Origin: Rhizaria sp. SCN 62-66
Lineage: Eukaryota
Length of the DNA stretch: 46,781 nt
NCBI GenBank assembly: GCA_001724265.1
Contig: MEDY01000235.1
Coordinates: 1-46,781, forward strand
Direction: 5' to 3'
In this document: positions 1,015 to 46,250 of the stretch, one piece after another
Layout: each line of letters opens with the position of its first letter
How positions within the stretch are numbered: position 1 is the stretch's first letter
Notes under the pieces: generated by a model
The model's database searches: none
What the model saw: the letters and a program-made list of their open reading frames with translations, nothing else
Told to the model about the DNA's origin: nothing
Program-made: the position numbers and the translations under genes

Positions 1015-2337
1015 TCAGACGCTCTTGCTGGACCACAAAACACAGCTCTGCTCGAGTCCCTGGTACGCGTACACTGGCACGTTGTACTTTTTGCGCACGC
1101 CCAACGGCACAAACCGCCCCCCCACAGCGTGCACAAACCTTGCAGCGCGCGTGGGCCCAGCTGTCCCCGACTTTCCTCCACTCTAGCCGTCCGCATGCGT
1201 TACTGCAGTTGTCGCTGCGGCCGCTTCAACCTCTGCGGTGGCCTGCTGCTGGAACGCGCGCGCGCAGCCCTTGGGCGCGGTGAGCGAGACGAGCATGTGC
1301 GGCATCACGCCGGTGCCGTAGACGTCGCCCGCGGTGACTTCCCAGCCAGACGGCACGTCGACGCTCACTGTCACGGTTGCGGTCGCAGTCGCGGCCGAGT
1401 CCGAGGCTTGCGCCGCTGAAGGGATGCTCGAGTTCACAGCAGTCGTCTTGGCCACAGACGCTGCGGCTGCGGCGGGGACACTGGTGCTGCTTTCACGCGA
1501 AATCCCGGCCTGCCAACTCTGGTTAGCTGCTGCAGCGCCAGCGCTCTTGTCGTCACTGTTGCGCAGAGATGCAGACGACTGAGCGCTGACCTTGCTGAGA
1601 AAGACGAGGAAGTCGTCAAAGGGAGCCCGCACCAGGGCGCGGATGCGGGCTTCGCAGTCTTCTGTCGCCAATGACAACGGTTGTGCGCTTTGACCGGGCA
1701 TCTGAGCGCAGGTCGCGGGTGGAGTGAAGGAGAAACCAAAGACGGAGTCGATGACGATGCTGGGAAACACCGTGTCAGCGGTGACGCAAGCGGCAGAAGC
1801 GGTGGGATCAGCCCAACCAACAACAGCAAGTGCGTTGGGAATAGAGACAGCGGTCGCAACGCCAATGTCGTTGCATTGGCGCAGCAGGGCCTAGTAGTGG
1901 CTACCGGGACGGGGCGCACGGGGCGCAGCAACAACAACCGAGTATCTATGAAGGTTACACAACGAAAAGAAGTAGATAAGTGAAGTTTGCATAGAATATC
2001 ACTACATAAGAGTATCGAAAATTCAATTTGGAGATAAAAGCTATTAGAAGTGACAATAAGCAGAGATACGAGGAAACAAAGAAGTGGTAGTTGCGTACCC
2101 TGCGTGTTTGAGATGGCGAGCTGCAACGAGCCCGTCACCACCGTTGTTGCCAGGTCCAGCCAAAACAATAACGCGAGGGAAAGAAGTGGTAGGATACTCT
2201 TTGTTGATAGCCTCTGCGCAGCTTAAACCTGCAAGTTCCATCAGCTGTTCTAACTTGAAGTTGTAGGGTCCCATGAGGTCTTCGTCCAGCGCAGCCGCTG
2301 CCGGTTGTTCCAGGTAAAACGACTCTGATGTCGACAT
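1015..2337 (-). CDS. NAXE: NAD(P)HX epimerase (YjeF-N / apoA-I binding protein); exons 2337-2099 and 1945-1015; two in-frame TAG (1893-1891, 1185-1183); ~389 aa
   Basis: Motifs [48 protein letters not shown] and C-terminal [12 protein letters not shown] all fall in one frame after removing a GT-AG intron (2098-1946) and reading through two TAGs. Ends at TGA 1017-1015. Confidence 0.9.
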
Positions 2338-2667
2338 AATTTTCGTGCTAAACTGTTTTAGTATAGACCTGTTCAAGCAAAGTGGGGCAATCGGCTTCTG
2401 ACGACGCAGGACCAACATATGGCTCATTGATTCTCGAGACCTGACTCGTTTCAAGACCCACCACAAACAACACTACAACTGTCACTGGACACGATATCAA
2501 GCTAGTAGCTTCTTTATTCAAGACAAAAAACGGTGAAACTACAAAAATACAGGTTATACATACTAGTACATAAGTTATTTCCCACGAATCCACGCGACAT
2601 ACCTTCCATGCTCAGCCCAAGACTTCTACGCACAAGAGTGATTCCAGCACTTGTGTGGAGTGGTTGT

Positions 2668-12678: not shown

Positions 12679-15600
12679 TTACTGTTGCGCAAGCTTGGCA
12701 CGCTTGATAGCAGCCTTCGCAGCGTCGGGGGCACCAGTTGCCTTCTTCTTAAGACGCACGGGAGCGTCGCCATCCGCATCGCCACCCTTTGCGCGCGTCG
12801 GGAGAGCGATATTGACACCATGAGCCTCGGAGTAAAGCGCAAACCAGTTCTCAAGCTCGCCGATCACGGCGCGCACTGCGCTGTCGCGCTCTGGAGAGTG
12901 CGGCGCCTGCGTCACGGCGGAGTGCGCCGTCGCCAACAGCTACAGAAGAAAAAGGTCAGAGTGAGGAAGCATGAATTGATGTTTGTGTGTGAGAATAAAT
13001 CAAAGTGGCAAATAGATTGAGTCATCTGAAAATCGATTGCGTTGAAAGTGAAGTTGACTGAAGTGCGATGACATACCTTGTAGTGTAGCGCCTCAAGCGC
13101 GCCGACGTGCGCGACGCCTTCGAGGCGCGCGACAAGGTCTTGCAGACGGCGCCACAGCGCGGGCGTGATCACCGCCTGCTGCAGCGCCGCGCCCGCCAGC
13201 GCCTCACTGGCCAGCGGCGCGGGCAGCGCGCCCTTGCTCGCGGCAGCCTTGGCAGCCTCGGCCTCGGACTTCTTGTCCGCGGCCTCTGCGGCCTCTGCGG
13301 CCTCGATGGCGGCGGCAGCGGCGGAGGCGGTGGCGTCCAGAGCCTGCGCCTCGTCGCGGCGGCGCGCGAGCTCGCGCTGGACCTCGGCCTCGCGCGCGCC
13401 GGCCTGCAGGTGCATCAGCGCCGGGTTAGGCACGAAGATGAGCGAGGGCCACGGCACGAAGCCTTCGGGCTGCGTGCGGAGCCGGTGCGCGACTAGCTCG
13501 CACGCGAGCGCGACCTGCGAGTCAAGCCCCAGACACAGAGTCAGCGCGCTGTCCTGTAGGTTGCACGCGCGGTTCACCAGCGAGCGGCCGTGCGGCGTGG
13601 CGAGCGAGTACGCCTGCTTGGTGTTGGCCACCAGCAGGTCGATGTCAGACAGGAACTCGCGCACCGAGAGGTAGCGCGCGTCGTTGACCTTGAACTGGAT
13701 GTCCTTGAGGTAGATGGGCGCGAGCAGGTTGCGGTACGCCACGTCGTCGCGCGGCTCCTCGATGAAGTCGCGGTAGTTCTGCAGCAGGTGCGCGGCGACG
13801 GAGCGCAGGAACATACGCAGGTGCAGCAGCAGCACTTCGTCCTGCTGCTGCTGCTGCCGCTTCTTCTCCGCGCGCTCCTCGTCCTCCTGCGTCTTGATCG
13901 ACGCGGCCACCCGGCGGCCGCTGAACTCGCCGCTCTCGTCGGCGCCGGCAGCGGCGCTCGCGCGATCACTCTTCGTCTTGCCGTCGCCGCTCGCGTCGTC
14001 GGTCATCGCGGTCTTGACATCCTTGCTGTCACCATGCGCACGCGCACTGCTGCTGCTGCTGCTGCTGCTCGCGGCGTCTGCGGAGACGGCCGCGGCATCG
14101 TCGGCCTTCTTCTTGGCCTTCTTGGCGACGGCGGCGGTGGCCGTGACCGGCGCGAGCAGCACGTCTAGCGCCGCCTGCGCGACCGCGCTTTGCCTCAGCG
14201 CCGCGCACCACGCGTCAGCACCGGCGCCGATCTCGCTCTTAACACCCCCGGCGCCGGAGCCCGCGCTCGACTCGGCCTTGACGAGCTCGACGTCGTCATC
14301 ACTGCCGGCCTTCGCAGCAGCAGTAGCAGCAGCGGCAGCAGCCGTGTTATTGCGATCGTCGCCGTCGCTGTTGAAGCTCTCATCCTCGCCGTCACCCTGC
14401 GCGAGCGTGGCGGCGGCGCGCGGGGTCCAGAGCCCCGAGCCGAGCCCGACACCGGCGCCCGAGGCCGTAGCGCAGTCGAAGAAGGCGGCGACCTCGTTGG
14501 GCAGCTCGGCGGCCGCGCACTCGGACCAGCCGACCACGTACACGGGGCTCTGCGGTGGCAGGTCCGACAGCATCATGAGCACGACAGTGCGCAGCGCCGC
14601 CGACGCGGAGCCCCACCACAGGTCGATCTGCGGCCAGTAGAGTACGCTGGGCGCGTTGCGGCGCGCCTCCGTAATGGCACTGGCCGCCGCCTCCTCGGGC
14701 CCGCGCGCGGTGAAGTCGGCCAGGAGCGCGGGCAGGTGCAGCGAGAAGAGAGGGAAGTCGTCCAGCCGGTGCAGCAGCGCCGCCGCCAGCGCCGCCTGCC
14801 CGTGGTCAGGCGCGCCGTGCAGCAAGAAGCGCGGACGGAACACGGCGCCCTCGCCCGCGGGCGTGCTGCCGGCATCGATGATCGCGCTCCCGGCGGCCGC
14901 GCCCGCCGAAGGCTGGCCACTGGCTTGCGCGGACTTAGGCAGACAGCCGCGCGGGAAGAGCGCGTCGCTCGCGGCGCGCACGCGGCGCCACACGGCGTCG
15001 AGCGCGCGGTCCAGCGGCGGCGCGAGGCGCGCGGCCGGGGACGGCGTGGCGCGCTGCGGAGCGGGCGTGATGGCCTGCATCGCGGCCAGGAAGTCCTCGC
15101 GCGTCACCACCAGCGCCTGCGCGGCGGCGTTGAGCGCGCGCGTCAGCGTGGCCGAGCCCGCGGCCGCGCCTCCCGCGGCCGCCGCGCCGCCGGGGCCCTT
15201 GCCCAGCGCCTGCTGCGAGTAGAGCTGCGGCATACAACGGCGCACGGCGCGCAGCGACGCCTCGGTGCACAGCGCCTTGAGGTCGGCACCGCAGTAGCCG
15301 GCCGTCTTGGCGGCCAGCTCGGCCAGCAGCGGTGGCGCCACGGCGGGCTGCCACGCGCGCGTGTGGATGCGCAGGATCTCCTCGCGCGGACCCTGCGCGG
15401 GCAGCGCGAAGAGCAGCTCGCGGTCGAAGCGGCCGGGGCGGCGCAGCGCGGGGTCGATCGCGTCGACGCGGTTCGTGGCGCCAATGACAATGACCTGGCC
15501 GCGCGCGTCTAGCCCGTCCATGAGCGCGAGCAGCGTCGACACGATGGACGAGTGCACTTGGTCCTGGCGCGAGGAGCGCACAGGCGCCAGACCATCGATC

Positions 15601-17237
15601 TCGTCGAAGAAGATCACCGAGGGCTGCATCTCGCGCGCTTGCTCGAACAGCAGGCGCAGCTGGCGCTCGGCCTCGCCAACCCACTTGGACAGGCAGTCGG
15701 CACCCTTGCGGATAAAAAAGGACACGTTGCGGCCCGAGAGGCGCGAGCACGTGCTAGCAAGCGCGCGCGCCGTGAGCGTCTTGCCCGTGCCGGGCGGGCC
15801 CGTGAAGAGCACGCCGCGCGGGGGCGTGATGCCGAAGCGCGAGAAGAGCGCAGGGTACAGCAGCGGCATGACGACCATTTCGTACAGCGCCTTGAGGTGG
15901 CTGTCGAGCCCGCCGACTGAGTCGAAGCCGACCTGCGCAATGGCGCCCGTCTGCGCTGACATGGCGTCCGTGTCCGTGTTGAGCGGGCCCTTGCCCGCTG
16001 CGGCCGCCGCGCCGCCGGGCCCCGCGGCCGAGGCGGCGGCCGCGATAACTTGCTGCGTCACCTCGGCCAGCACGCTCGCCGACGACGGCGGCATAGGAGG
16101 GTAGCTCGCGAACATCACGCCCGGGTTCGCGAAGCCCAGCGCAGAGGGATCCACCGTGCCGCGCGCCAGCGCGTCTGCTGCGCTGCCCCTGCCGCCAGCG
16201 CCGGCGCCGGAGCCGCCGGAGGAGGAGGACGAGTTGGTGCGAGGGCCCCCACCGGCGGAGCCGCGGCCGGGCGCGGAAAATACGCCCGACTTGGCGATGG
16301 TCTCGGGCATCACTTCCTCGCCCGCCGAGGTCGAGTCGCCCTGCAGCTGGTAGTGGTCGTCGGGCGCGTGGAACGACGACGCGGCCAGGCCGCCGCCGCG
16401 CTTGCTACTGCTGCCGCCGCCGGCCGCAGACTGGCGGCCGCGCAGGCGCCGCGCGGGGCGGTCGCTCTCGCTGTCATGCTTGCCGCGGGCGTTGCCGCCG
16501 TCGTCGTCCTCGTCGTCGTCCTCGTCGTCGTCGTTGAGGTGGCGGCGAGACGAGCGGCGGCTGCCACTGTTACTGCTGTTGCTGCCGCCGCGGGCGCGCC
16601 GCGGACCGTTCTCACTGTCATCTTCGTCGTCGGCATCGTCGCGGCCCCGCGCGCTGCGACGGCTGCTGCGCACGCCGCTGCTGTTGCTGTTGCCGCTCGC
16701 GTTGCGCCCGCTGCGGCGCGGCGCGGCGGTGTACTCCTCCTCATCGTCATCGTCGTCGACGTCGTCGTCGTCCTCGGTCGAGGAGGAGGACGACGACACG
16801 GCATCAGAATCGAACTTCGCGTCGATGTCGCCCATCGAGTGCGTGGCGTTGCGGCGCCGGCCCATGCGCGGGCCCCTGGGCTCGTCGGCGTCGGTGGCAT
16901 ACCCGCTGCTCTCGCTATCGCTCTGGGTCGCCTGAAAGGGGCGGAACGCGGCGACTCCGGCACCGGGGGCGGCGGGCGCGTAGCGGAGATTCTTGACGAG
17001 CTCGCCGGCGAGAACCAGCCGCAGCTCTGGCAGAGGCGCGCCTGCGCCGTCGACCGCGACGGGCTTGTCAGCGCCGCCGTCGGGGGGTTTGCTGTTGTTG
17101 CCACGTTTCGCTTCATCCTCACTCTCATCGTCGTTCAGGGCGGTGCGGGAGCGGCGCGCGGGGACGCGGGCGGCGTCAGAGTCCGAGGCGGACTAGGAAG
17201 ACTCAGCCGCAATGCTGCGGAGTCCCTTGGCCTTCAT
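12679..17237 (-). CDS. ATAD2: ATAD2/Yta7/Abo1-type AAA+ ATPase with bromodomain; exons 17237-13077 and 12939-12679; in-frame TAG at 17195-17193; ~1473 aa
   Basis: Walker A GPPGTGKT, RKGADCLSKWVGEAERQLRLLF, Walker B IFFDEIDGLAPVRSSRQDQ and DPALRRPGRFDRE, then a degenerate second AAA and a bromodomain-like segment. Intron 13076-12940 (GTATGT...TGTAG). The coding-like frame continues upstream of the track's ATG 16865, through one TAG, to ATG 17237. Ends at TAA. Confidence 0.88.
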
Positions 17238-25645: not shown

Positions 25646-26388
25646 TGCGCAAGGCGCACTGGATTTGATCATTGAACGACAGGGCCGCAAGTGCCGGTGT
25701 TAGTAGGCGAAATCTGAATGGTTTTTGGTTTATTTTTATTGGGTATAATTTGCGAACATCATGAAGCGTAACTACTTTTTATTCTCCGTAAAACGCAGGA
25801 TGAGTCCAAACAAATGTATGACCCGCGTGTGTACAAACCACGCGTTACTCTGGTAAATCCAGATAACCAAATATGTCAATCCAAGTTCAAAGTCTTGGAA
25901 AGTACAAACTTAATTTTTATTTGCCTTCAATACAGTCTTCGATGTACAGCATAATTGAGCATATTTCTTGGTCTAATGGCATATTTATTTCATATACTCC
26001 CTGATACTCTGATTCTACTTCGAACCTCCCCATATTGGAAAGTACGTACAAACTTAACGTGAAGAGCAAGTCGTAGAGTAGTGTAAATACACGTAACATA
26101 AAGAATGTCAGTTAGTCCATGCGTTGTCCTCTGCCACTCCATTCATTCAAATTCGAATGTTCACTACAATCCTCCTAGTCGTCATAAAAAAAATGCGCGA
26201 TCTTAACTATTCATCATAATCAATCCGTAAACACGTTCATCACATATAATCAACGTCAGGGTTACGCGCAAATTGTTAGCAATATCACATTGTAGTTGCG
26301 CCTACGTCGTCATCACCATAGTCACCTGCCCCGTCCCCCCCTGCCGGGGTTCTCAAAATATCACCAAGAGAGGTATGGGGCGACACTA

Positions 26389-26669
26389 GTGCGCAACATG
26401 GTCTTGGAACTCAGCGTGGCAGACGCGGCTCAGCGGACGCCGCAGCCGTTGTCGCTGTCCGAACGTTCTCGTCAAGCGCAAGCTCGAATCGATTCCCACG
26501 CTGTGTCGGATGACGTGCGCACGGGACGCGCGCTTGCCGTGGAGCTTATCTCACGTCATCTAAACCATAAATCAAAGGCGAGTACTCTACCATCGTCTTC
26601 GGATCAACGGCTTGGGGCATCGACAACAACAGCTCTGACATTAATGTGTCAATTGTGCTCACCAAATGA
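26389..26669 (+). pseudogene. Truncated, frameshifted third copy of the nucleotidyltransferase gene
   Basis: VRNMVLELSVADAA...GRALAVELIS closely matches paralog 2. There is a 1-nt deletion near 26572, then GEYSTIVFGSTAWGIDNNSSDINVSIV (DVD changed to DIN), then TGA and AT-rich DNA. Confidence 0.85.
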
Positions 26670-27204: not shown

Positions 27205-30200
27205 TTAATACAACTTCATCTCATGTGGGTTAAACGCAAGATCGACATCAATGCCTTGCCTGCGCTGCACGCCGCTGTACCGCGCGCACCACGGGCAGCA
27301 CGGCAGCTCGGCCACCTCCTTCGTGAAACGCTCCGGCTCCGTCACGGCCATGGCGATAACGGCGTCGACAGTGGTTTTCTTGGCCTCGGCCAAACGTACC
27401 ACGCGCTCCTCCTCGGCGGCCTGCGCACGCTCGACGCGGGCCACGTACAGCGCGTCCGCGCGCGCAAGAGCGACACGACCAACATGCGTAGACTGCAGCA
27501 GCGCCTCGACGCCGTGATGCTCATGCGTCGCGAACAGGCCGGCCAGTCCCAGCTCGCGCGCGGACTGCAGCGCGGCGGCGTCGACCGCGGCGTCGTCCTC
27601 GTCGTACCAGTCGTCGCCGCTGTCGTTCTCGCTGTCGCTGCCGCTGCTCGAGCTGCCCGGATCGCCATCGCCGTCGTTGTCTTCCGTGCCGCTCGCCACC
27701 GCAGACGCCACCGCGAACGGGGACGCCAACGCAGCAGCGGATGCCGACGCAGACGCAAAGGCAGACGCAGCGCCAGAGCCGGCGTCGCCGGACGTCTTCC
27801 CGCCTGAGGTACCATCGGCACTTACGGCAGCGTGGTCGCTGTGATCCTCGGCGTCCTCGTCGTCGCCCTCTGGGATCGCGTGCGCGACGGCGTTGCTGCC
27901 GCCCGCGGTGCGGTATACGCTCTGCTTGCGCGCCAGCGCCAGCGGGCCCGCGCCTGCGCCTGCGCCGGCCTCGCCCGCGGCGGTCGCGGGGGACGCGGCG
28001 GCGACGCCGGAGAGGTCGACGTGCGGGAGGTCCGAGTGCTCCGCGTGCAGCGGCAGCAGCCCGCGCACGACCATGGAGCGCACGTTACTCTGGTGCACCC
28101 CCGCGACCTCGGCGGCGTCCACGCGGCGGCGCGGCGACAGCGGCGAGAGCGGTGAGAGCACGCCTTCCGCGCCACCAGCGCCGATGCCCGCGTTCACGCT
28201 CAGCGCCAGGCCCAGCGGCGGCGCGCCGCTCGCACTGAGAGTGGCGTTCGCGCCGGGCGTGCCGCTGGACGCGGCGAAAAACGCGCTGCGGCCGGCGCCT
28301 GCAGCGGCGCCGGGGACGGCAGAGTCCGCGCCCGTCGCACGCGGCGGCAGCAGCGAGACGGAGGAGAGCGTGAGCGCGCGATGGAAAGATGGCGCGGACG
28401 CAGACGGCACAAGACCGCTGCCGCCACCAGACACACGCAGGCCCTTGGCCGTGGCAGTGGAGCCTGTCGCCGCATCAACGCCGTCGCCGAGTGTCACAGC
28501 TGCGGTGGCAGCGGCATCGCCGTAGGTTTCGGCGTCAGCATCAGCGTCTGCGATCAGGTCGCCGTCACCGTGCCCACCGGCCGTGAAGGGCGCAATGCTG
28601 ATCGTGTTGTGGCGCTGCATCAGGTCCCTGACCGCGCCGCGGTCGCGGCTGCGCAGACGCGACTTGCGCGACGAGCCGTGCTGCTCCTGGCGGCGCTTTT
28701 GGTGCATCGCGGAGAACTCGGCCATGTGCAGGTCGACGACGCGGCCGAGGTCCTTAAGCTCGTTCGCCAAGTCGTCAAGCATGTTGCTCTTGCCGGTCAC
28801 GCCCGCGGGCACGCCGCCCGCCTCCGCGGGTGAGGCTCCCGTTGCGGCCACACAGGCAGGATCGGTAGACGGCAGTGCGGGCGTAGCGTCAGGGGGAGAG
28901 CCGGGCGAGGTCGCGGGCGCTGGTGAGGCCGCGCCTGCAGAACTCGCGGCGATGGTGCCAGCGGGCGCGACGGGCACAGCGGTGACCGCCGCCGTAGCGG
29001 GTGCGTAGCCGAGGCGTGCGGCGGCGTTGTCAAGGCGCGCGATGGCGTCCGCAGTGGAAACAAAGCCGCCGCGCTCGTCGTCGCCGGAGTAGAGCGCGGC
29101 CGCCAGCAGCGCACGCTTGTGCTGCGCCTTGCGGGTACGTTCCTTGTGCAGCAGCGTGAGCACAAAGACAGTGTACGCGATAAGAATCACGACGATTACC
29201 CCAAAGCCGGTAAAGAACATCGCATTCCACTGGTTGATCTCGGCGTACGAGTCGTCCGTGCCCTCTTGATGCGCGCCCTGGTTAGCGAACGCAAGCACCG
29301 TCAGCGCGGACCAGGAGCCGAGCGTAAAGGTGATGATCTTGACCGCGTCCACGACGGGCTCCGAAGACGGCATGAATTCCTGCGACACAGTCTGTGAGCG
29401 CTGCGGCGAGAGCAGCGCCTGGTGCGGCGCGCTCGAGTGCGCGGGCACCGACGGCGGCACCGACAGGTTGAGGTTCAGCGCGGAGCCCGCGGAAGGGTAG
29501 TACATCAGGCCCCCGCCCGCGACGGCCGGTGACGACGGGGCCGCGGGCGTCGGCGGCGCGGGCAGCGGGCCCGTGCACGGCGACAGACGCCCGCCTGTCC
29601 CGCTGCCGGCAGTGGCGGTGGGAGCAAAAGCGTTCGCGGTCGTAGTGGCGCCAGCGGGCGTGCGGGCGGGCGCGCGCGGCGGCAGGCCCTGTCCGCGCGC
29701 GCTAAGCGGCAGCGCGGCGTCGGGGCCGGCGTGCACGGCGGAGCCCGGGGCCGGGATGGGCTTGGGGCTGGCGAGGCTGATCGAGGTCGCGCCCGTCGAC
29801 GGCGAGAGGGGGAAGTACGGCCGCTGCGCGCTGCCGGGCGTGCGCGCCGTCGCAGTCGCGGAAACGTTCGGAGCGGGAGCGCGCGGCAGGGGCGCCATCT
29901 CGACATCACCGGCGCGCTTGGCCGGGCCGCGGCGCTGCGTCTGCTGCGGCTGCATCTGCTGCTGCTGTTGCTGCTGCTGGAGCTGCGCGTACGTGAGGAT
30001 CGCCGGCCGCTGCTGCTGCTGCGACGGCGCAGAACGGCGGCGGCCCGGGCCGGAGACAGCGGTCGATGAACCGGGCCCACCGGGCGCGACGAAGTTCGCG
30101 TCCGACTGCGCAGCGCCGTCGTGTTTGCGGCGCGTGAGCAGACGCGGCGAGAGCACCCAGACGAGCGTGAGAATGCACAGCGCGAGCGAGAAAACGAGGA

Positions 30201-33200
30201 TCCACGCCGCGCCGCCGTGCGCGTTGCCGCGGAGCAGCGCGACGTAGCCCGCGACGCAAAGCCCGCGCACTGCCGAGACCATCATGGCGTACTTGTGGTG
30301 CGTCGTCAGGCCGCTGATCTGCGGAGCGTTGAGGTGCCACAGCCGCCGCGAGGTCTCCACCCACAGCGAGAAGGCCGCCTCGGACGACAGCGGCGCCGCC
30401 GCGGCGGAGACCAGCTTGCCACCCGCCGCGCTGACCGCGCGGCCGTTGCTGCTGAGGGCGGCGTCCGGGGAGCTGGCGCCATCGGAGAGTGAATCGCCCG
30501 TAAGCGCCTGGAGGTAGGACCGCAGCAGGGCCTTGCGGCGCGCGATCTGGACTTCGATGCGTAGCAGTGCGCCGGCGAGCGCAATGTTGGGGTGCAGCAG
30601 CGTGGTGATGATGAGGAAGTACACAGCCGAGGCAAGCATGACAACCGAGAGCGCGCGGTATGCCTCGCTGCCCGCAGGCCAGCATACTGCCGAGAACTGC
30701 ACGTTGGCGCCGAGCCAGGTGCACGAGATGGGATGCAGCAGGTGCCAGAGCACGAGCATGGGCAGCGTGTCGCAGATAAAGCCAGCGACGCGGCGAACCA
30801 AGGGCGAGACGATGTCGACGCGCAGGTGGCCGTGGCCGAAGAGCAGCGAGCCCGTGAGCGACATGAACAGGTACTGCTGCGCCAGGATAGGCCGCTGGCG
30901 CCGGTGCCGCAGCACCAGCCACGCGCGCACATCGAGCAGCAGCTGCAGCGCCAGCGTAGCAAGGAGCAGTGCGACGAGCCCGAGCGAAACCCAAGCCATG
31001 ACAGGCGCGTTGGTCAGCGAGTCGACGTTGCCGACCGCGTCGCGCGTGACGCCGTAGCTGTCACCGTCGGGCGCGTACGTCAGGAACACGGCGTTGTGCA
31101 GCGCGCGCGCCCACGTGGGCGGCAGCGAGCCGCGCAACGTGCCGTGCGTGCGGTTCGAGTCATCTGAGTAGAACGAGAAGGTCGCCGTGGCCCACAGCAG
31201 CAGCTCGTAGCATAGGCAGAGCACGACCCACGCGCCGGGCCCCGTGGCGGACCCGGGCCACGCGGAGCAGCGCGAGGGCCGCACGAGGTTGCCGTGCTCA
31301 TCCACATCGCGCACGTCCTGTTTCTCGGGGATCTCAAGCCCCTGAGCCGCGGCCTCGAACCGCGCGTCTGCGACCCGCAGCTGCCGCGTCGAGTAGCAGC
31401 ATCGCCAGCCCCATCGCCACGCCGTGGCAGCAAATAGCGCCTCGTCGCGGCCCTCTCCGCCGCCGCCCGCGGCGCCGGGGTGCGCGGAGGCCGAGGAGCC
31501 CGGCAGCGCAAGCGGCACGCCCGCGGCGCGCGCGGCAGCCGCCAGTGTGTCGACGTCCTTGCCCGTCCCGACCACGCCCAGCGGCAGCATCGGCAGCGCT
31601 GAGTACGAGGTTTCGCGGCCCGCGCCGGGCACCGCGCTCACCGCGCCCGCGCCCACGGCCACGGCCACGGGGCCCGCGCCCGCGGAGCCGGCGCCCCGCG
31701 AGGAGCCCGCGGCCACGGCGGCCGCGGCCGCGGCGGCGATAGGGTCCGTGTAGACGCTCTGCGGGGCCGCGCTCGCAATGGCGGCGGCGGCAGCAGCCGA
31801 GTTGGCCGCGTTGGCGTCTGCCGCGCTCGTGCTAGCCGCGTGTTGATGATGGTGGCCGAGGTAGGGCGGTGTGGGCTGCCGCGACGCTGCACCCGAGTTA
31901 GAGCCCGCGCCGACCCCAGCCGCGGCGGAGCCAGCGGCGCTGCCGGCGCTGGCCGAGCTGCCGTAGCTGCGCCGCTTGGGGCCGAGCCCGCCAGCGCCAG
32001 CACCGGAGCCACCAGGGCCGTTCACAGCGCCGCCAGCGACGGAGACGGCGTCGGCCGAGATCGCATTGGCCGCAGCGCTGTTGCCGGCGCCGGGGACCGC
32101 CGCGGCAAACGCAAGGTTCTCGACGGCAATGTCGTATGTCGTCGCGCGGTACGACTGGCCGTAGGTCGGGATGGCGAAGTCAAGCCGCCCCTGCACACCT
32201 GGCCCTGCGCCGATGCCGCCGCCGCCGCCGTGGGGCGCTGTGGAGTAAGACAGCGAGCGCGACTGCGGGATCGGGCCCGCGCCGGCGCCGGGCGCGTGCG
32301 CAGGCGCCGGCGCCGCGAGGAACGACGACTGCGGCGCACTGGCGCCGGCGCCGGCGCCCGTCGCGGCGGCGAAGGCACTCGCAGTGCCGGTGCCCGCAGG
32401 GTAGGGCAGCGCGAAGTGCTGCTGGCGCAGATGCGCGACGCCGTCACCGGAAAAGCCCAGCGCGGCCGACGCCGCCGCGGCCTCGATGTCTGCGCGCGAC
32501 CGCAGGCCCACCGCGCCCCCTCCGGCAGTAGCGCCCGCAACGGGGTTGTAGCTGGCGTTCGGGCCTAGCTGGTCGGCGAGCTTGACGCGCGCGGCGGCCG
32601 GGAGCGCAGCCGCAGAGCCGCCGGTGACGAGCGCGTCCGTATACGACGGTTGCCTGCCGCCGTTGGCTCCCGTCGCAGCGCCCGCCATGGAGGAGGCCGA
32701 GACCGCGGGGCTGTTGGCCGCGCTGGCCGAGGCGGCGGCGGGCGGCACAAGAGCGAAAGCCGCCATGAGCGACAGCTGCGGCTGCTGCGGCAGCAGCGCG
32801 CCGTGCCGCGGCGACTCGTCGTGCACCGCGCCACCGCCGGCTCCGCGCGAGAGCGCGGCCGCGGCCGCGGCGGCGGCGGCGGAGCCCGGCGGGAGGCTGG
32901 AGCTGGAGCCGGCGCGCGTGCCCGGCGCGGTGCCGCCGTTGCGCGCGGCCTTGGCGGCGAGCACCGCAGCCGCGTACGCCTCCTGCTCCTCCAGCGCCAG
33001 CGTGCGGTTCAGCCCCGCGCGCGGCGCCGCGGGCCCGCGCAAGCGCGAGCCGGACACGAGTGAGCCGCCGCCCGAGAGGCCCACGCCGCTGAGGGCCGGG
33101 GACAGCGCCGCCCTGCCGGGGCCCGCGACGCCGCCCACGGCGCTGCTGTTGCTGCCGCCGGCGCCGGTCGTCGCGGGCGCGATTGTGATGGTCAGCGCGC

Positions 33201-36200
33201 CCACGCCCGGGCCCGCGCCCGTCGCGCCGCCAGAGCCCGCGCCGGCCGTAAGCGCGTCGCCGGTGCCGCTAGCAGCGCCGGAAACGGTGCTGATGGCGCC
33301 GGCGTTGCGGCGCTGGCGGCGGAGCGCGGCGGGCCCGTGCTTACGCGTGTAGCGCATGGCGGTGATGCAGGCGGCGGCCATGACGAGCGCGATAACGACA
33401 ACGTAGACGCCGATGGACGTCTGCGCGCGGACCCAGGACACGGCGGTTGGGTCGTGCAGGATCCCGTAGACGGCCGCAATGGGGTAGCCCACGAGCACGA
33501 GCACGGCCGGGACGGCGCAGACGAGCAGGTGTGCGATGTTGACGCGGTGCTTGGGCGCGCGCACGGGCTGCAGCATGCCGCGCACGACCTCCTGAATGCG
33601 GATCGCATAGTGCGTCTCGGGGATGAAGAAGCGCATGGCGTAGGCGGGCAACAGCACGAGCACGAGCAGCAGCATCACCAGCGGCACCAGCACCACGCTC
33701 GACAGCGCGAACAACACGTCGTCCTGCGTCTCCAGCGACACGCAGCCACAGATGTCGCCGCGCGGACCGCGCCGGCTCGCGCTGCCCTTGCGCCCCGCCC
33801 CGGTCACGCCGTGCTTGCCTACGGTGTGGCTGTGGCTAGCCCGATGCCGCCCGTGGCCCGCGCCCACGCCGGCGCTGTGGTCGAGGCCGTCGTGCCGCGA
33901 GTGGCGCTCTCTCGCTCCAGCGCCACCGTCCGCGGAATCGGCGCCAGTGCCAGCGCCAGAGCTGGGGAACGCAGCAGCGCCCGCAGCGGGTCTGTTGCTG
34001 GCGTGACCCGCGCTCGCCTCCTCATCGTCGTCGTCGTCGTTGTTGTTGGCGGTCTGCTGTCGCAGCAGCCGCGCGCGGCCGCCAAACCCGATCACGGAGG
34101 CCACGTTGATCGATGCCGCGCGCTCGCGGGCCGCTGCGGCCGCCACGGAGGGTTTGTGCTGCAGCGCGGGCGCGGCGGCCGCGTCGGGCTGCGTGGTGTT
34201 GCCGGCTGCGTCCTTGCCCGCGAAGCCGGCGCCGGAGCCCGCGCGCGCGCTGCGGGTGGAGCCGGGCGTTCGCGGAGTGGCCGGGGGGGCCGCGCTGGGG
34301 CTGCGCGGGGCAGAGTCGCCCGCGGAGGAGGCCGAGCCCACGCGCACAGACAGCGCCGCCGCACCGGCTCCGGCATCACGCATGCCAGCGGCACCGCCAA
34401 CGGCGGCAGCTGAGGCAGTGCCGGGCGCGGTGTCGAGCGCGATCGCGCCGTCGCCGTTGATGGCAAGGTCCTCGATGTTGCTGGGGCTGTTAAGCGCGTT
34501 GAGGTTGCTGTTGCTCGTGTCGTGGTCGAGGCCGCCGCCGCCGAGGTCCAGGTCATTGACGGCCTGCACCGAGTCCACGTGTGCCAGGTTGTGCGCGAAG
34601 TCGATCGCGTCCAGGAACGACTGTGCGCGCCGCGGAATGCGCCCCGCGCGCGCCGCGCCGTGAGCCTCGTCGTCGCCCTCGTCGCCGTCACCGTGGCCGT
34701 GGCAGTCGGGGTCGTCGCCAGCAGCAGAAATCTTGGCAGAGACTGCGCCAGTCACCACGTCAGAGGCTCCGTGGCTGTCCTTGCGGTGCAGGCTTCTCCC
34801 CTTACCGCTGCTGCTGCCTTTGCCCTTGTCTTTACCAGCGCCGTCGCCGTCGCTCTCGGTGTCGCTGTCAATGTCGTGCGAGCGGCCCTCGGCGCCGTCC
34901 GCCGTGGCGTCGACGTTGCTGCTGATGCGCGCGGCTGCGGCGGCCTCGTACAGCTTCATGCGCGGAGGCAGCGCCGAGTCCGCGCTGGCGCTCACGCTCG
35001 CGGACGCCGTCGCAGCGTGGCCGTGAGCGACGTGGCCTTGGCCGTGGTGGGGCGACAAAGTCACCTACGGCGGCACTGCGGGCCCGTGCACGCGACCGCC
35101 GACACCGGCGCCGGCACCGCGAGTCCCATGTGTCCCATGCGTGCCGTGCGCGCCCCTGTGGCCGTGCGAGTCTGCGACGCTGCTGCCCGAGCTGTCGCGC
35201 AGCAGGTTAGCGACTTCGAAAGCCAGCGCGTCGGCCTCGACGCCGTCCTGCAGCTCCACGTGCCCGTGCGCCACACGCAACCCGCGCGCGCCATGCGCGC
35301 CGTGGTGCCCGTGGTGGCCGTGGGCTGCGGCGGGAATGGCCGCACTGCTGGTGCCGCTGTTGCGCCGGATGAGCGCCGCGGGCCCCATCAGCGGGCTCTG
35401 GCCGTGGCCGTGGGCGGCGGGGGAGGCGGCGAGCGCGGCCGAGTGCGCAGCAACAGAGCTGCCGCCCACCGCGAAGGCGTTGTTGCCCGCGGCGGCGGCG
35501 GCGGATGAGGTCGAGGAGGAGACCGTTGCGGAGCTGGAGTTGCTGACGTCATCGCTGTCGGCGATGGGCGACGGCGAGGGGCCCAGCCCACCCGCAACGG
35601 GGCTGCCGCTGCCGCTCACGCTCACGCCCCCGCCCGCAACGCCGGCGACGCCCGACGCGGCCGGGGACACGTTGCCTATGTTATTGCCGTTGCCGTTGCC
35701 GTTGATGTCATCGTCGCTGAGCGCTGCGGCGTCGTCGTCCTCGTCGTCGTCGGTGTAGCCGTGGGGCGCCATGGAGCGCGGCGCGGGCAGCCCGGGCGTA
35801 ATGCCGATGGCGGCGGTCAGCGGCACGCGCGCCAGGTAGTGGCACAAGTGCGGCACGTGCCGGCCCGTGAGCGCCGACACCTCGAAGTACGGCAAGTCGA
35901 ACGAGCGCGCGAACTGGACGGCCTCAGCGACCGAGACAATGCGCGCGGCCTGGGGCACGTCCGTCTTGGTGGCGACGAGCGTGATGGGCGTGGGCGCAAA
36001 GACGGGGTGGCCGCGGATCGAGCTCACCAGCGCGTCGGCGGCCGCGAAGGACTTTCGCGACGTCACATCGAACACGACGACGACGCCGGCCGCGGCGTGC
36101 ATCCAGGTCGCGCGCAGGCCCAGCGCGTCAGTAGCGCCAGAACAGTCCCAGAGCGAGAGCTTGACGACGAAGCCGTCGATCATGGCCTGCCAGGACCCGA

Positions 36201-36482
36201 AGGCGGTGCCAAAGGTGTGGACGTAGTCGGGGTCGAAGGCCTTGTTCTCGATCGCGTGGATGAGCTGCGTCTTGCCGGACCGCGTGGAGCCTAGCAGGCA
36301 GTATTTAAACTGCGCAAAATAAAACAGCGAGTGAAACGAAATATGTGAGTTTGGGTGCGCTGGATAACGAAAGAGAGAATGTAGATAGCGATATGTGTGG
36401 TGAATGAGGAGAGACGAACCTTGAAGTCGACGAGCTGCTGCTGCACCTCGCCGACACTGCCGACGCTCGCGTCGACCTGCAT
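27205..36482 (-). CDS. Giant protein: N-terminal Ras/Rab-like small GTPase domain, low-complexity regions and multi-pass membrane segments; exons 36482-36420 and 36309-27205; in-frame TAG at 35067-35065; ~3055 aa
   Basis: Intron 36419-36310 joins MQVDASVGSVGEVQQQLVDFK to FKYCLLGSTRSGKT (G1), followed by HTFG, LSLWDCSG, VVVFDVT, LVATKTD and YFEVSA. ORF 35065-36183 abuts ORF 27205-35064 in frame across one TAG, and the latter has no ATG at its start. About ten hydrophobic helices follow. Ends at TAA. Confidence 0.75.
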
Positions 36483-40281: not shown

Positions 40282-43200
40282 TTAATTCTCCGTGACCGCA
40301 ATGCAGATGCTGCGCCAGTCCTCGTCAGACATGCCTGCCGGGCGAAAGTACCCCAGGCGGGCCATCTCCTTATCGGTTGGAAACCGCGCCGCGCCCGCCG
40401 CGCGCCGCTGCCGTGAGCCGGTCGCGGCATCGTCGCCGCCAGCGCGCGCGGAGGCACGGCCGCTGCCGCTGCCATTATCCTTGCTTTTGCTGCTGCTGCT
40501 GCTCTTGCGCTTGATGTTTGTCCCGCCGTCGTCGTCGTTGTTGTCGGAGCTCGAGTCAATGAGATCGACAACGTCGACAGCAGCACCAGATACGGTGCGC
40601 TTCACACCACCCTTGCTATTGCTGCTGTTGCTCATGTTGGCGTTGCTATTGCTATTGCTGTTGCTCCAGCTGGCGCTACTGCCGCTTTTGCTGCTGTTGC
40701 TCTTCTGAGCGCCACTCTTAGCGCTCGCGCGCGGCTTGACGTCGGGCTCGGAGTCCGATGACACGAGGTCCATCTCGATCACTGTACCCGGCGGGCACTG
40801 CAGGCGCGACTGCGAGAGTTGCGACTGGGGCTGGGATTGCGACTGCGACAGTGCTTGGGACTGCAGGCTAGAGGGCGCGGAAGACTGGCTCGCACTACTA
40901 GGAACGTCAGAGATCTTACTCTTGCTGCTGCTGCCGCTGATGTTGCTGTTGTTGTTGTTGTTGTTGTTGTTGTGACTGCGCTCACTCTAAGTCTTGGTGC
41001 TGCTGCTCTTGGCGCTCTTGCTCGAGCTCGAACTGCTCTTGCTACTGCTGCTCTTGCCCTTGCCCGCACTGCTGCTGCTGCTGTTGTAGATGACAGCGTT
41101 CTCGTTGCTCTTGGCCGCGGCGATCTTGCGACCCGCGCCGCCCAGCACCGAGCTCGCAGTGACCGCGGCGTCGCCGTCCGACTCGGCGTCCATATCCGCG
41201 TCGGCGTCGGCGTCGGCGTCGACCATCGCCACGGGCTTCGCGGCAGGGGCCTTCGCAGACACGGCAGCGGCGGTGCTCGCGGTCGCCATCTTGGCGCTGC
41301 TGCTCTTGGCCTTGGGCGCACTGCTGCTCTAGCCGCTGCTGCTGCTGCACTTTGTGGCGACGCGCGCGCTCTTGTGTTCGCTGCCGTCGTCCTAGTTGTC
41401 GCTGCTGTCACTTCCGTTGCTCTAGACCTCGGCGTCATCATCGCTGTTGCTGCCGCTCGAGAGCGCGAGCGCAGACGCAGACGCAGCGGCGTCGGAGGCG
41501 CCGGAGAGGCGGGCGCGCTTGGTTACCTGGCCACCAGCAGCCGCCCGGGCAGTCGAAGACGCACCGGCAGCAACAGCGGCAGCGGAAGAGTTGCGGTCGC
41601 TGCTCTTGCTCATGCTGCTCTTAGAGCTGCTCTTAGCGCTGCTCTTGACGCTGCTGCTCTTGCTCTTGCTCTTGCTCTCAGTCTTCGCATCGGCCTTGGC
41701 GTCAGCCTCAGCGTCAGCATCCTCAGCAGCGTCGTCGCCGTCGTCATCGCTTTCGCTGTCACTGCTGCTACTGCTGTCGCCCTTGTCCTTGTCAGCCTTT
41801 GCAGCATCAGCGTCGCCGTCAACCTTAGCCTCGCCGTCAGTGTCAGCGTCAGTGTTATCATCGTCGACGCCAGCAGCGGCCGCAGCGGCCTCGGCCTCAG
41901 CGTCGGCGTCCGCCTTGCGCTTGTCGGCCGCGATCTGGGCCAGGAACGCTGGCAGCTTGCTCTTGGGCCCGGCGATCTTAGGCGGCGGCAACGCCACCAC
42001 GGGAGCCTCCTCCTCGGCCTTCTTGCGGCGGCTCTTGCGCGCCTTCTTCTTGCCGTCGCCACCGTCCTCACCAGCAGCGTCGTTGTCGCCGGCGCCGCCG
42101 TCCGCAGCGGCGGCGTCGTAACCGTCGGTCATGCCGGCAGCTGCACCGGCGCTGTTGCTGTTGCTATTAGAGCTGGAGCCGCCGACGAGCGAGAACATCT
42201 CGACCATGAGCTCGCCCTCTCCCTGCAGCTGCAGCGGGTCACCGTCCGCGTCGTCATCGCCGTCACCCGCCTCGGCGTCGGCTGCGGCAGCAGCGTCGGC
42301 GTCAGCGCCCGCCTTGGCAGCAGCAGCCGCCGCGGCGGCAGCGGCGCCGCGCTCCTTCTTGACGGCGCGCGGGCGCTCGACGATGGCGGTGGCGCGCTTG
42401 TTGATCTCTTCCACGGGCGACACGATCTCCTTGCCCGAGACCTCGCAGGAGAAAACAAACCGCACCGGTTCCCACACCGCCAGCGCGGTCGCTGCCGCGG
42501 GCTTCGCCGCCGGGGACGCGCGCAGGGCCGTAAATGGGCGCACGCCGCTGCCGGGCGTGCCGGTGCGGGACCCAGAGCCGGAGCCGGAGCCGGAGCTTGA
42601 GTCAGAGCTGGCGGAGGCGGCGGAGGCGGCCGCCACGACGGCGGCGTCGGGTAGCGGGCGCTCTGCAGCAGCAGCATCATCAGCAGTCTTCTCTGTCGCA
42701 TCAGTGGCGGACTTAGCGGCGGGCGTCTCGACGGCAATCACGTCGTCGTTGCTGTCGTCGTCATCGTCAATATCATCGCTGTAGTTCTTCTTGGCCTTAC
42801 TCGAGCCGCCCGCAAAAGCGGCGGAGCCCGTGCCAAACATGCCGAGGCGCGGCGCCGCAGAGGCGGCGACGGCTACGCGCATGCTCGACCGCACGGGCCC
42901 CGCGCTGGCCGCGGGGGCACCGGCCGAGGCGGCGAGGCACTTAAGGTTGCCCGCGCTCTTGACCGGGATGTTGGCGAAGTTGGACGTGTGCGTGAAACGC
43001 AACATGGGGTCGGGCGTGGTGAGCACGGTCGGGTGGTGCGACCAGTTGGCCAGGTCATCCTCGGCGGGCTTCCCGCGCTGCCCCCACCGCAGCGTCACGC
43101 GGCCCGAGCCCGAGCTCGCAGCGGCGCCGTCACCGGCAGCGGCGGCGGCAGCGGCGGCGGCAGCGGCGCTCTTGGCGGCGGCGCAGTCAGCGTCGAAGGT

Positions 43201-46200
43201 GTCGCAGCAGCGGCAGGCGAGCGTGTCGTGCGTGGTGCTGCGCGAGCTCTCGACCAGCGTAAACAAGTCCTTGAGGTCCTCGCGCGAGACCTGCGCCTCG
43301 GTGTTGTTTCCGCCCATGACGTCTGCCAGCCCTTCCTTGGAGAGCTGGCGCTGATACACCTTCTCCTCAATCGAGCCCGCGGCCAGAAAACGGTAGACAA
43401 AGCAGCGCTTCTTCTGGCCGTCGCGCCACACGCGCGCCGCCGCCTGTTTGTCCACGGCCGGGTTCCAGTCGGGGTCGAACAGCACCAGCCGGTTCGCGCC
43501 GACCAGGTTGAGTCCGCACCCGCCGGCCTTGGAGGAGAGCAGGAAGCAGAAGTAGTTGTTGCCGGCGCGCGAAAGCTCGTCGACGCGTTCCTGGCGCTTC
43601 TTGATCGTGGTGGAGCCGTCGACGCGGAGGAATTTCCAGCCGCGGAAGTTGCACAGCGCCTCGAACAAGTCCAGCGTCTGAGTGTAGTTGGAGATTAAGA
43701 CAAACTTGTCGTCCGACATGGCTTTGACGGCGCACAGCAGGCGGTCCAGCGCGTCCATCTTGCCCGAGAAGCGCGGATGCGCGGCCGTCTGCTCGAAGTC
43801 CCTGGGGAAGAGCGCGTCCAACGCCGGGCCCATGCCGGGCAGCGACGACGTCTTGCGCACGTCATACACCAGCTTCGGGTGGTTGCACAGCGTCTTGAGC
43901 AGGCCGATGAGCGGCAGCACCTGCACGCCCGAGTTGCCGCCACGCTTCTTGCCGCCTCCCTCATCATCGTCGTCATCGTCGTAGTTGGCGTTGTCAGCGC
44001 CGTCCTTGGCGGCGTCGGCGTCGGCGGCGGCGAGCGCGGCCTTGAGCTCGCTGTTGGCGAGCGCCATCTGCGTGCGGAAATGCGCGTAAAGCGTCTTCTG
44101 TAGCGGCGTGAGGTCGCAGCACACGATGTGCATCACCTTGGGCGGCAGGTGCGCTGATAGCAGCGTGTTGGTGCGGCGCACGATGAACTGGTTGACGATG
44201 TTCGACAGCCGCGTGGCGCAGTCGTCGCCCTTGCGGCGCTCCGCGTCCGTCGCAAAGGGCTCGCGGCCGACCAAGATGGGCGTCTGATACACGCGTGAGA
44301 ACTTGTTCTGGTCGCCCAGCACGTCGGGATTGGTGAAGTTGACCATGGCGTAGAACTCAGTCAGCGCGTTCTGCATCGGCGTGCCCGAGAGCAGGATGCG
44401 GCGCCGGCACTGGAGCTTGTTGAGCTGCTTGTAAATGCCCGTCTCGCTGTTCTTGAGCCGGTGCGCTTCGTCGCACACCAGCAGGTCCGTGTCGCGGCGG
44501 TAGATGGCCGCGGCGTGGCGGCGGAACGCGTCGTAGCTGATCACGAGCACCTGGACGCCGCGCGCGTCGTTGCAGTAGTCACGGATGCCGGCCAGGATCA
44601 CGTCCTTGTTGGCCTCGGCCAGCGCCTTGACGTTGAGCGCGCCGGGGCCGAGCCACTTCTCGAACTCTTTGCCCCAGTTGGCGACGAGCGACACGGGGCA
44701 CACGACGATGGCCTTTTTGCACACCGGCTGGCCCGCCACAAAGCCCTGCGTCAACAGCGTGTAGATCGTCGCGACAGACTGCAGCGTCTTGCCCAGACCC
44801 ATGTCATCGGCCAGGATCGCGCCCTGGCCGTCGAAGTCGCGCTGCTGCAGCACGCACTCGCACAGGAACTGCACGCCGTCACGCTAAAATGCGATGGAGT
44901 AACACAGTGACAGGATGTCAAAAGTAAAGTGAGAAATAATAAGGGTACGTCATAATAATAGTATCATTTAAATAAATATTACGTTTCAAACCAAGACATT
45001 ATCGTCTGGTCAAAGTATCTCTGTTTTAGTTTATATGAACGCACCTGGTGCGGGCGGAGCCAGTGCGCGACACGGGGCGGGACCTCGATACTGGAGAGTG
45101 TGACGCCCTCGCACGCGGCCACATCCGCCGCGTCGGGCTCCCACACCACGAGCGGCTTGAAGTCGGCCGGGATAACCACGGCCGATGCCGCGGGCGCGCC
45201 CAGTCCCTTGTCCGGCTGCAGCAGCGGCGGCGGCGGCGGCGGCGGGATGTAGGCCCCGGGGGGCGTGAAAGGCACAAAAGCACCCGTGCCAAGCGGGACG
45301 CGGTACTTGATGGCGTTGCGGTTGATGCCGAGCGTGTTGCTGGCCTTGCTCGCGTCCCAGCGCAGCCCTACGGCGCGCATCGCCAGGAACGACTTGCGGT
45401 GCGTGCCCGCGTGCTCGCTCTGCGACAGCGAGAGCCCCGCCATGGGGGGCGCGCGGGACACAGACAGCGTGCCCGCGGCCAGCGCGGCGACGTTAGCGCG
45501 GTAGGACGGGCGCAGGGAGACCTCGCCGGTCAGGGGGTCGATCTCCTCGGGTCCTTCGTCATCGTCGGCGTCGTCTTCGTCGTCGTCGCTGACGTCGTCG
45601 TCGTTGTTGTCGTCGGAGGACGAATCGTCGTCGCAGAAAGCGTCGTCGTCGTCGTCGTCGTCGGAGCCCTTGCCCTTGCCCTTCTTGCCGCGCTTGCCCT
45701 GGCCCAGGGCGCCGAAGGGCGAGCCGAGGGGCGTGGTGGACCGCACCGTGGGGGCGCGGCGCGTCGAGCCGCCCGCGGGAGATAGCGACGAAGCGGGGGT
45801 CGCGGGGGAGCGCGGACCCAAGCCGGGCGCGGCGAGCGCGGAGGAGCGCGCCGCGGGGGAACGCAGAGCTGCGCTTGTAGAGGGCGTGCCGAACGCGGGT
45901 CTGGCACCGCCGGGGGTCAAGCCAGTGCCAGAGCCAGGGCCGGTAGCGGCGAAACCGAAAGCGCGGGGTGCTGAGCCCGGAGTGACGAGGGACAGGCCAA
46001 GCGACGGGCGCGCAAAGGGCTTAGCGGGCGTTGCGGCCGCTGGCGTGACCGGGTTAGCTGCGACAAAGGCGGCCTTGAGGGCTTTAAACTCTGAAGGGGT
46101 GACAGTCTTGTTGCAGCCTGAACCGGAGCCTCCGTCACCAGCGGTGCCGTTCTCGCATAAATAACCGAAGAGACTGTCGTCGCCGTCGTAAAGAGGCATC

Positions 46201-46250
46201 AGCAAACCCTCTTCGCAGGCCTCACACAGAGGGCCCTTCGGCGGAGGCAT
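40282..46250 (-). CDS. RAD54: RAD54-family SNF2 DNA translocase; exons 46250-45045 and 44883-40282; four in-frame TAG (41424, 41394, 41331, 40989); ~1935 aa
   Basis: Spliced LRPHQRDGVQFL (intron 45044-44884), ILADDMGLGKTLQ, CDEAHRLKN, LSGTPMQN, RRTNTLLSAHLPPK, LLSSKAGGCGLNLVGANRLVLFDPDWNPAVDKQAAARVWRDGQKK. Track ORFs 41422-44874, 40987-41289 and 40282-40782 share one frame, interrupted only by TAGs. Ends at TAA 40284-40282. Confidence 0.88.
40946..40973. repeat. (GTT)n microsatellite, encoding poly-Asn in the RAD54 frame
   Basis: Run of gtt repeats. It reads AAC in the extended RAD54 frame downstream of the fourth TAG. Confidence 0.75.

Follow-up and report, generated by a model that had tools for sequence, protein, structure and literature searches.

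Probable decoding of UAG as an amino acid, with UAA and UGA as stop codons, in a GC-rich eukaryote of wastewater

Results

The first 46,781 bases of contig MEDY01000235.1 (assembly GCA_001724265.1), hereafter the window, contain 11 recognizable protein genes distributed over both strands. Six of these genes carry TAG codons inside otherwise intact reading frames, and the meaning of these codons is the subject of this work. Their products include an NAXE/YjeF_N epimerase, an acyl-CoA thioesterase, a SNARE-like protein, and an Rce1-like protease. Further genes encode a MYND/TPR protein, an ATAD2-like AAA+ bromodomain ATPase, two tandem Cid1/TUTase-like nucleotidyltransferases (NTase-1 and NTase-2), a very long membrane protein joined to a Ras-like GTPase (the GTPase giant), a PQ-loop protein, and a RAD54-like helicase. 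GC content ranges from 0.50 to 0.76 in 2-kb windows across the stretch. We conclude that the window is nuclear DNA from a GC-rich, intron-poor, uncultured eukaryote of wastewater and bioreactor samples.

The initial annotation of this DNA listed ten in-frame TAGs in six genes and proposed that TAG is a sense codon while TAA and TGA remain stops. We found all ten where it had placed them, each in the frame of its open reading frame (ORF). The 11,634 codons of our revised gene models include 10 TAGs, 0 TGAs, and 0 TAAs in frame and are free of frameshifts, in agreement with the earlier statement that the genes show no internal TGA and no frameshift. TAG usage amounts to 0.86 per 1000 codons, and 6 of the 11 genes carry at least one. 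The codons that follow the TAGs are GCC, AGT, TCC, CGC, GAT, GTG, AGC, GAC, AGC, and AGT. These ten 3' contexts comprise the eight distinct triplets reported before and have no common motif, so the view that they hold no shared readthrough signal also stood.

The genes do contain introns. NAXE, the ATAD2-like gene, and the GTPase giant each have a GT..AG intron, and the RAD54-like gene has an AT-rich gap. The introns lie on the minus strand at 2098-1946 in NAXE (153 nt, GC 0.34), at 13076-12940 in the 3' part of the ATAD2-like gene (GTATGT..TGTAG), and at 36419-36310 in the GTPase giant. Introns are few. Those that could be defined are of the GT..AG type and 110-153 nt long, with a GC content of 0.34-0.38 compared with about 0.65 in exons, a contrast that provides a workable gene-finding signal in this organism. 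Their donors are GTACGC, GTATGT, and GTTCGT, and their acceptors are TAG or CAG behind a pyrimidine run.

The use of TAG at real acceptors raises the possibility that the in-frame TAGs are 3' splice sites or are removed within small in-frame introns. A pyrimidine run precedes the TAG of the ATAD2-like gene (tcttccTAG), and a 48-nt segment around one of the NAXE TAGs (GTTGAA..GGCTAG, at TAG 1185) would preserve the frame if spliced. The candidate introns have a GC content of 0.5-0.7, which sets them apart from the verified introns of 110-153 nt at 0.34-0.38. This difference and the results described below for NAXE, the GTPase giant, and the ATAD2-like gene make splicing a very improbable explanation of the TAGs.

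None of the genes ends in TAG. The initial annotation had counted 12 gene ends (8 TAA and 4 TGA); the absence of TAG among them stood, and the count fell to 11 definable ends, with 7 TAA and 4 TGA. Three stops that terminate ORFs (TGA 7907, TGA 12914, and TAA 44981) lie inside introns, and the true end of the ATAD2-like gene is the TAA at 12679-12681, past its 3' intron. GC content at third codon positions (GC3) is near 0.84 in the genes. In the 150 nt that follow the ten TAGs it is 0.54-0.90, and in the 150 nt that follow true TAA or TGA ends it is 0.30-0.58 (10 ends, with the ATAD2 end at 12679-12681 left out).

Homologous coding sequence in the same frame was found on both sides of nine of the ten TAGs. 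The exception is TAG 17195 of the ATAD2-like gene, for which the evidence is codon usage. Together with the absence of TAG from the 11 gene ends, these matches bear out the proposed assignment of TAG as sense and of TAA and TGA as stops within the window. After the TAGs of the RAD54-like gene, the ATAD2-like gene, and the GTPase giant, and also between the two TAGs of NAXE, a codon-usage score favored frame 0, where it was above zero, over the other frames, where it was below zero.

The gene for NAXE (NAD(P)H-hydrate epimerase) occupies 1015..2337 on the minus strand, with exon 1 at 2337-2099, exon 2 at 1945-1015, and a TGA stop. Codon 98 (1891..1893, minus strand), which lies 18 codons into exon 2, and codon 334 (1183..1185, minus strand), which lies in a low-complexity insertion, are both TAG. 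The two-exon protein aligned over its full length with 13 NAXE sequences. We built a profile hidden Markov model (HMM) of NAXE from 12 homologs, leaving out the window protein and its close relative P0128. Residues 7-156 matched this model as one domain that runs through TAG 1893 with high posterior probability (130 bits, E 4e-42). The TAG falls within the motif '[LF][YF]-x-x-L-x-x-Q-C', opposite a consensus Lys of the HMM, in a column that is variable among the 12 homologs (H, K, I, Q, E, L, T, N, N, Q, T, and R). The profile alignment needs the residues flanking TAG 1893, which argues against an intron at this site.

The insertion that contains TAG 1185 is also present in P0128, where it forms an uninterrupted frame. 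Because the frame is open in this relative, the insertion is not an intron, and the 48-nt intron model was left unsupported. The 50 amino acids after TAG 1185 matched the C-terminus of P0128 with a score of 154, which was reached by 0 of 500 shuffles. They also matched the GGRFVP C-terminus of yeast and mouse NAXE (HMM domain 4, E 3e-8). Searching metagenome contigs with P0128 gave at least 50 loci, the best of which, among the matches listed, had 38% identity over most of the query.

NTase-1 (18491..21325, plus strand) and its tandem paralog NTase-2 (22676..25645, plus strand) both end in TAA. They are 62% identical over 314 amino acids in the C-terminal half, and both terminate in a long Gln-rich tail. 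Each contains a single TAG, at 20867..20869 in NTase-1 and at 24845..24847 in NTase-2 (both plus strand), and either paralog is uninterrupted across the TAG of the other. In a BLASTP comparison of the two proteins, the alignment passed ungapped through the NTase-2 TAG, placing X opposite a His, and continued in frame through about 70 amino acids of homology. Over the 69 codons behind this TAG, the proportions of nonsynonymous (pN) and synonymous (pS) differences were 0.345 and 0.648, giving a ratio of nonsynonymous to synonymous substitution (dN/dS) of 0.31; the upstream value was 0.24. Purifying selection therefore acts in this frame behind the NTase-2 TAG. The Q-rich tail that follows the TAG of NTase-1 is collinear with the open NTase-2 frame. 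When this tail was aligned to NTase-2, the score of 85 was reached by 3 of 500 composition-preserving shuffles, and a global alignment agreed.

The RAD54-like SNF2 helicase gene (40282..46250, minus strand) consists of an N-terminal ORF at 46250-44979 and a main ORF at 44874-40282 with a TAA stop. We could not fit a simple in-frame GT..AG intron to the AT-rich gap between them (44875-44980, minus strand). Four TAGs (41422..41424, 41392..41394, 41329..41331, and 40987..40989, all on the minus strand) fall within 436 nt of the low-complexity tail. The segments between and after these TAGs have codon-usage scores of +0.36 to +0.75 in frame 0, negative scores off frame, and a GC3 of 0.75-0.90. The last 30 amino acids, which lie past all four TAGs, found their best local match at the very C-terminus of two relatives, P0008 (residues 1482-1511 of 1511, score 58) and P0011 (residues 1475-1515 of 1518, score 49). 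Each of these scores was reached by 1 of 300 shuffles. The same 30 residues gave no C-terminal match to P0009 or P0010. An argument from the length of the RAD54-like protein was dropped, since with the N-terminal ORF included, a protein cut at the first TAG is about as long as its relatives. Genome contigs searched with the window protein yielded 7 bacterial SNF2 loci at 26-28% identity.

Near-identical sequence occurs in bioreactor and wastewater metagenome runs, with shares of 0.96-0.99 in three runs from two studies (one may be the source). We aligned the assembled contigs (not raw reads) of four runs to a part of the window outside which the NAXE, ATAD2, and NTase-1 TAGs lie. Contigs of run X3 matched in long pieces with 0 differences, and those of runs X4 and X6, from an activated-sludge study, matched in pieces with few differences. 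A DNA contig from run X3, which belongs to another study, spans 40983-42253 and covers the RAD54 TAGs with 0 differences; the fourth lies within 7 nt of the contig end. Because another study's run carries them identically, the RAD54 TAGs are not the error of one assembly.

These results bear on another view, in which the genes are decaying or truncated and their TAGs arose by nonsense mutation, from errors of assembly, or as polymorphisms between strains. At a GC3 of about 0.84 the one-step neighbors of TAG (CAG, AAG, GAG, TCG, and TAC) are common codons, so random nonsense would mostly appear as TAG. Decay would sit poorly with the complete lack of frameshifts, TAA, and TGA in the 11,634 codons and with the purifying selection that persists behind the NTase-2 TAG. 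Conserved C-terminal motifs lie past the TAGs in NAXE and in the RAD54-like protein, and the RAD54 TAGs recur unchanged in the second study. We regard this explanation as having very little chance of being correct.

The GTPase giant (27205..36482, minus strand) has exon 1 at 36482-36420, exon 2 at 36309-27205, and a TAA stop. Its TAG (35065..35067, minus strand) separates the Ras-like domain from the multi-pass membrane part, with a GC3 of 0.78 before it and 0.88 after it. We searched 1.84 billion representatives with 1200 residues around the TAG and recovered the gene's own split gene calls and P0372, the uninterrupted 2714-residue protein of a relative. BLASTP showed P0372 to be collinear on both sides of the TAG, in the Ras-like domain (216-389) and in the first membrane block (1096-1282). 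Further collinear regions were a large conserved block at 1819-2277 (E 4e-59), a region at 2522-2609, and a C-terminal Cys motif at 3223-3245. The GTPase giant thus joins a Ras-like GTPase domain to a membrane protein of about 2,800 amino acids, in which several multi-pass blocks are conserved and the C-terminal motif is CCxWC. P0372 has this architecture too, and the large part is outside any Pfam family.

A polyA metatranscriptome contig (35033-35413) bridges TAG 35067 with 0 gaps and 3 differences at unlisted positions. The ungapped RNA alignment argues against an intron at this TAG. The three differences leave room for adenosine-to-inosine (A-to-I) editing that would turn UAG into UGG (Trp), a restorative process known from filamentous ascomycetes, and run X6 shows four T>C differences, three of them listed. 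The ascomycete system prefers UAG, as described in the published accounts (PMC11156358, PMC10776026, and PMC5497914-like cases), so the in-frame stops of intact genes are exclusively or mostly UAG there, as they are in the window. In those fungi, however, editing affects a small share of genes (71 such genes per genome are given for Fusarium, PMC10776026) and is specific to the sexual stage, whereas 6 of 11 genes are affected here. Fungi that edit also keep TAG as a terminator, and here 0 of 11 ends use it. None of the 12 homologs has Trp at the NAXE column, and the best RAD54 matches are not fungal. Editing is thus a highly unlikely source of the pattern.

The ATAD2-like AAA+ bromodomain gene (12679..17237, minus strand) has the 3' intron given above and a TAA stop at 12679-12681. 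Its TAG (17193..17195, minus strand) is codon 15 counted from the ATG at 17237. The 109 codons after the TAG are plainly coding, as their GC3 is 0.83 and their codon-usage score is +0.48 in frame 0 versus -0.45 and -1.22 off frame. The ATG at 17237, upstream of the TAG, is the sole in-frame ATG, and none occurs from the TAG to 16865. An intron from GTATGT (17678) to TAG 17195 was rejected: it would be out of frame and, at 484 nt with a GC content of 0.50, is unlike the real introns. TAG 17195 is probably read as sense.

Public gene calls stop at the TAGs or start at them or at the next ATG, so that the deposited proteins are truncated or split. The call for the RAD54-like gene has 1150 amino acids (window 40282-44874) and that for the ATAD2-like gene has 1317 (window 12912-16865). 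The GTPase giant is split at its TAG into calls of 372 and 2584 amino acids (window 27205-36183). Eukaryotic bins from wastewater need code-aware annotation.

Several observations weigh against reading TAG as a sense codon. Pfam domain matches cover none of the ten TAGs, and for this reason each was examined singly. Open frames proved a weak test in GC-rich DNA, as 101 of 511 other TAGs in the six frames (20%) are followed by at least 150 codons without TAA or TGA. We dropped ORF run length because of this background, and the case rests on homology and codon usage. Of the seven larger regions given a codon-usage score, four yielded no decisive value. In frame 0 it was -0.02 after NAXE TAG 1185 and -0.19 after the NTase-2 TAG, below the -0.01 of frame 1; in the Q-rich tail after the NTase-1 TAG it was 0.19 against -0.06. 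The 18-codon stretch of NAXE exon 2 before TAG 1893 scored -0.10. NAXE TAG 1185 and the two NTase TAGs therefore rely on homology, since the score does not separate the frames there.

Homology has gaps of its own. Pairwise alignments of the 58 amino acids around NAXE TAG 1893 were not significant (scores reached by 44 of 500 and 297 of 500 shuffles), so the support for this TAG comes from the profile and the flanking blocks. A BLASTP search of the 234-residue RAD54 tail that follows the TAGs against P0008, the closest relative, gave nothing significant (best E 4.3). TAG 17195 of the ATAD2-like gene is without homology support, and an upstream spliced exon may be present there. The polyA contig is the sole RNA support and extends 32 nt on the short side of TAG 35067. 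Three TAG columns could be aligned, and they comprise the variable NAXE column, a His in the NTase paralog, and a Val in P0128, so that no consistent residue emerged. The orthologs P0008 and P0372 of the relatives are uninterrupted under the standard code, and the trait may therefore be narrow. Finally, because 11 ends were available, TAG may serve as a terminator in up to about a quarter of genes.

Two regions of the window merit separate description. At 25367-26033, the summed contig depth was 10 to 100 times that of neighboring bins in all four aligned runs. This segment is AT-rich intergenic DNA adjoining a CAG-repeat tail, and three runs share a joint from 25913 to 26060 with 29 other letters in between. 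Rfam gave 0 matches in 25600-26500 at E up to 1. The depth peak is probably low-complexity cross-matching from other organisms. At the left edge, a twelfth gene (2-379, minus strand) is cut by the window boundary; it encodes a secreted protein with an N-terminal signal-peptide-like segment, MKFLVSVMLFVALYATAALA..., and no Pfam match was found for it. A viral contig collection gave 2 weak matches to the window and no close relative.

Discussion

We consider it likely that UAG is decoded as an amino acid in this organism and that UAA and UGA terminate translation. Known UAG-only codes combine a tRNA with a CUA anticodon and an eRF1 that has lost the ability to release at UAG, as outlined in PMC5304391. 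By analogy, this organism would decode UAG with a CUA-anticodon tRNA, able to pair with UAG and unable to pair with UAA, and its eRF1 would have weakened UAG recognition. The window contains 0 tRNA genes, and no eRF1 gene is found among its genes. Rfam at the gathering threshold gave 0 matches across the whole window, which holds neither an rRNA nor a phylogenomic marker.

The lack of a tRNA-CUA within the window would also be compatible with leaky termination, in which near-cognate tRNAs read through TAG and neither a dedicated tRNA nor an altered release factor is involved. The rarity of TAG (10 in 11,634 codons) and its confinement to variable or disordered positions, where any residue may be tolerable, point the same way. 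Leaky termination would nevertheless have to affect 6 of 11 genes, and the NAXE enzyme would lose three quarters of its length at each failure of readthrough. Four successive leaky stops in the RAD54-like gene would leave little full-length protein. TAG is also found at 0 of 11 gene ends, and the 3' contexts share no readthrough motif. We judge leaky termination improbable, though less so than editing, splicing, or gene decay.

All ten TAGs occupy variable or disordered, mostly polar positions, and their contexts are often rich in Ser, Asp, or Gly; in five of the ten, Ser follows directly. Such rare use of UAG at undemanding sites would fit a reassignment of recent origin or else a codon whose inefficient reading is tolerable only there. 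None of the ten TAGs lies at a conserved Leu, and Leu occurs in one of the 12 homologs at the NAXE column. Judged from these positions, Leu would be an unlikely meaning of UAG, although the argument is weak. The two NTase tails contain very many Gln codons and, between them, a single TAG, which lies outside any Gln run. By a similarly weak argument, Gln would not be favored by these tails.

The placement of the organism is suggested by its best named protein matches, which disagree. The RAD54-like protein is closest to that of Amorphochlora (Rhizaria; 53%, 627 bits), with plants and oomycetes at about 570 bits, and NAXE is closest to that of Clastostelium (Amoebozoa; 38%). A taxonomic search with the AAA domain of the ATAD2-like protein was swamped by CDC48-type ATPases. 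The organism may be kin to Sainouroidea, a group that includes the UAG-reassigned rhizarian exLh and whose members are described as coprophilic (PMC5304391).

Lineages in which UAG and UAA differ in meaning amount to a handful in the accounts cited here (exLh, Iotanema, and a few ciliates; PMC5304391, PMC11687900, PMC10553269), and each tests ideas on stop-codon capture. Reassignment of UAG alone has precedents in a few lineages, to which the window would add another case. In the literature searched, with supplements outside the search, no eukaryote from wastewater or activated sludge was described as using such a code. The case would be unusual in its very GC-rich genome, its long intron-poor contig, and its very low UAG usage at undemanding sites, a pattern expected early in a reassignment. 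We tentatively raise a more specific scenario, which we hold to be somewhat doubtful: an independent and young capture of UAG, in an unsampled GC-rich lineage of engineered water systems, by a polar residue that is neither Leu nor clearly Gln. If true, a stop-to-sense reassignment would have been caught at an early stage, and the organism, which is found repeatedly in bioreactors, could be enriched for study.

The closest known parallel is exLh, a rhizarian of the Sainouroidea obtained from Lygus hesperus, in which UAG encodes Leu and UAA and UGA are stops (Panek et al. 2017, PMC5304391). In that account, 384 UAGs in 71 genes are concentrated at conserved Leu positions, the genes end in 56 UAA and 15 UGA, and the eRF1 position equivalent to human Leu69 is noted. 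As in exLh, UAG is the only stop codon found in frame in the window, UAA is the commoner terminator (56 to 15 there and 7 to 4 here), and the organism is not a ciliate; the best named RAD54 match of the window is likewise a rhizarian. Unlike exLh, the window has 10 UAGs in 11,634 codons, a much lower usage, and none of them is at a conserved Leu, and it comes from wastewater rather than an insect. The fornicate Iotanema spirale, for which UAG is reported to encode Gln and to make up about 8% of Gln codons (PMC5304391), resembles our case in that no other stop codon is reassigned and UAG remains in the minority. For the window, the NTase tails would not favor Gln.

The list of known cases in the initial annotation left out the phyllopharyngean ciliates, for which three independent UAG reassignments (to Leu once and to Gln twice) with suppressor tRNAs have been described (McGowan et al. 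2024, PMC11687900). The features shared with these ciliates are that UAG only is reassigned, that UAA is the preferred stop, and that discovery was made in metagenome assemblies. In contrast to them, the window is GC-rich (0.50-0.76), belongs to a 162.5-kb contig with many genes, and has ordinary GT..AG introns. In Oligohymenophorea sp. PL0344, UAA and UAG encode different amino acids (McGowan et al. 2023, PMC10553269). There, as here, UAA and UAG differ in meaning, but both codons are sense in PL0344, whereas TAA ends 7 of 11 genes in the window.

A further parallel comes from viruses. Some metagenome-assembled genomes of giant viruses are reported to be best annotated with a TAG-only reassignment, 'code 129', in which TAG encodes Tyr (PMC13524828). 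These genomes hint at hosts with a single reassigned TAG in terrestrial or man-made habitats. They are viral and were judged by gene-calling scores, in contrast to the window, which carries cellular genes with spliceosomal introns.

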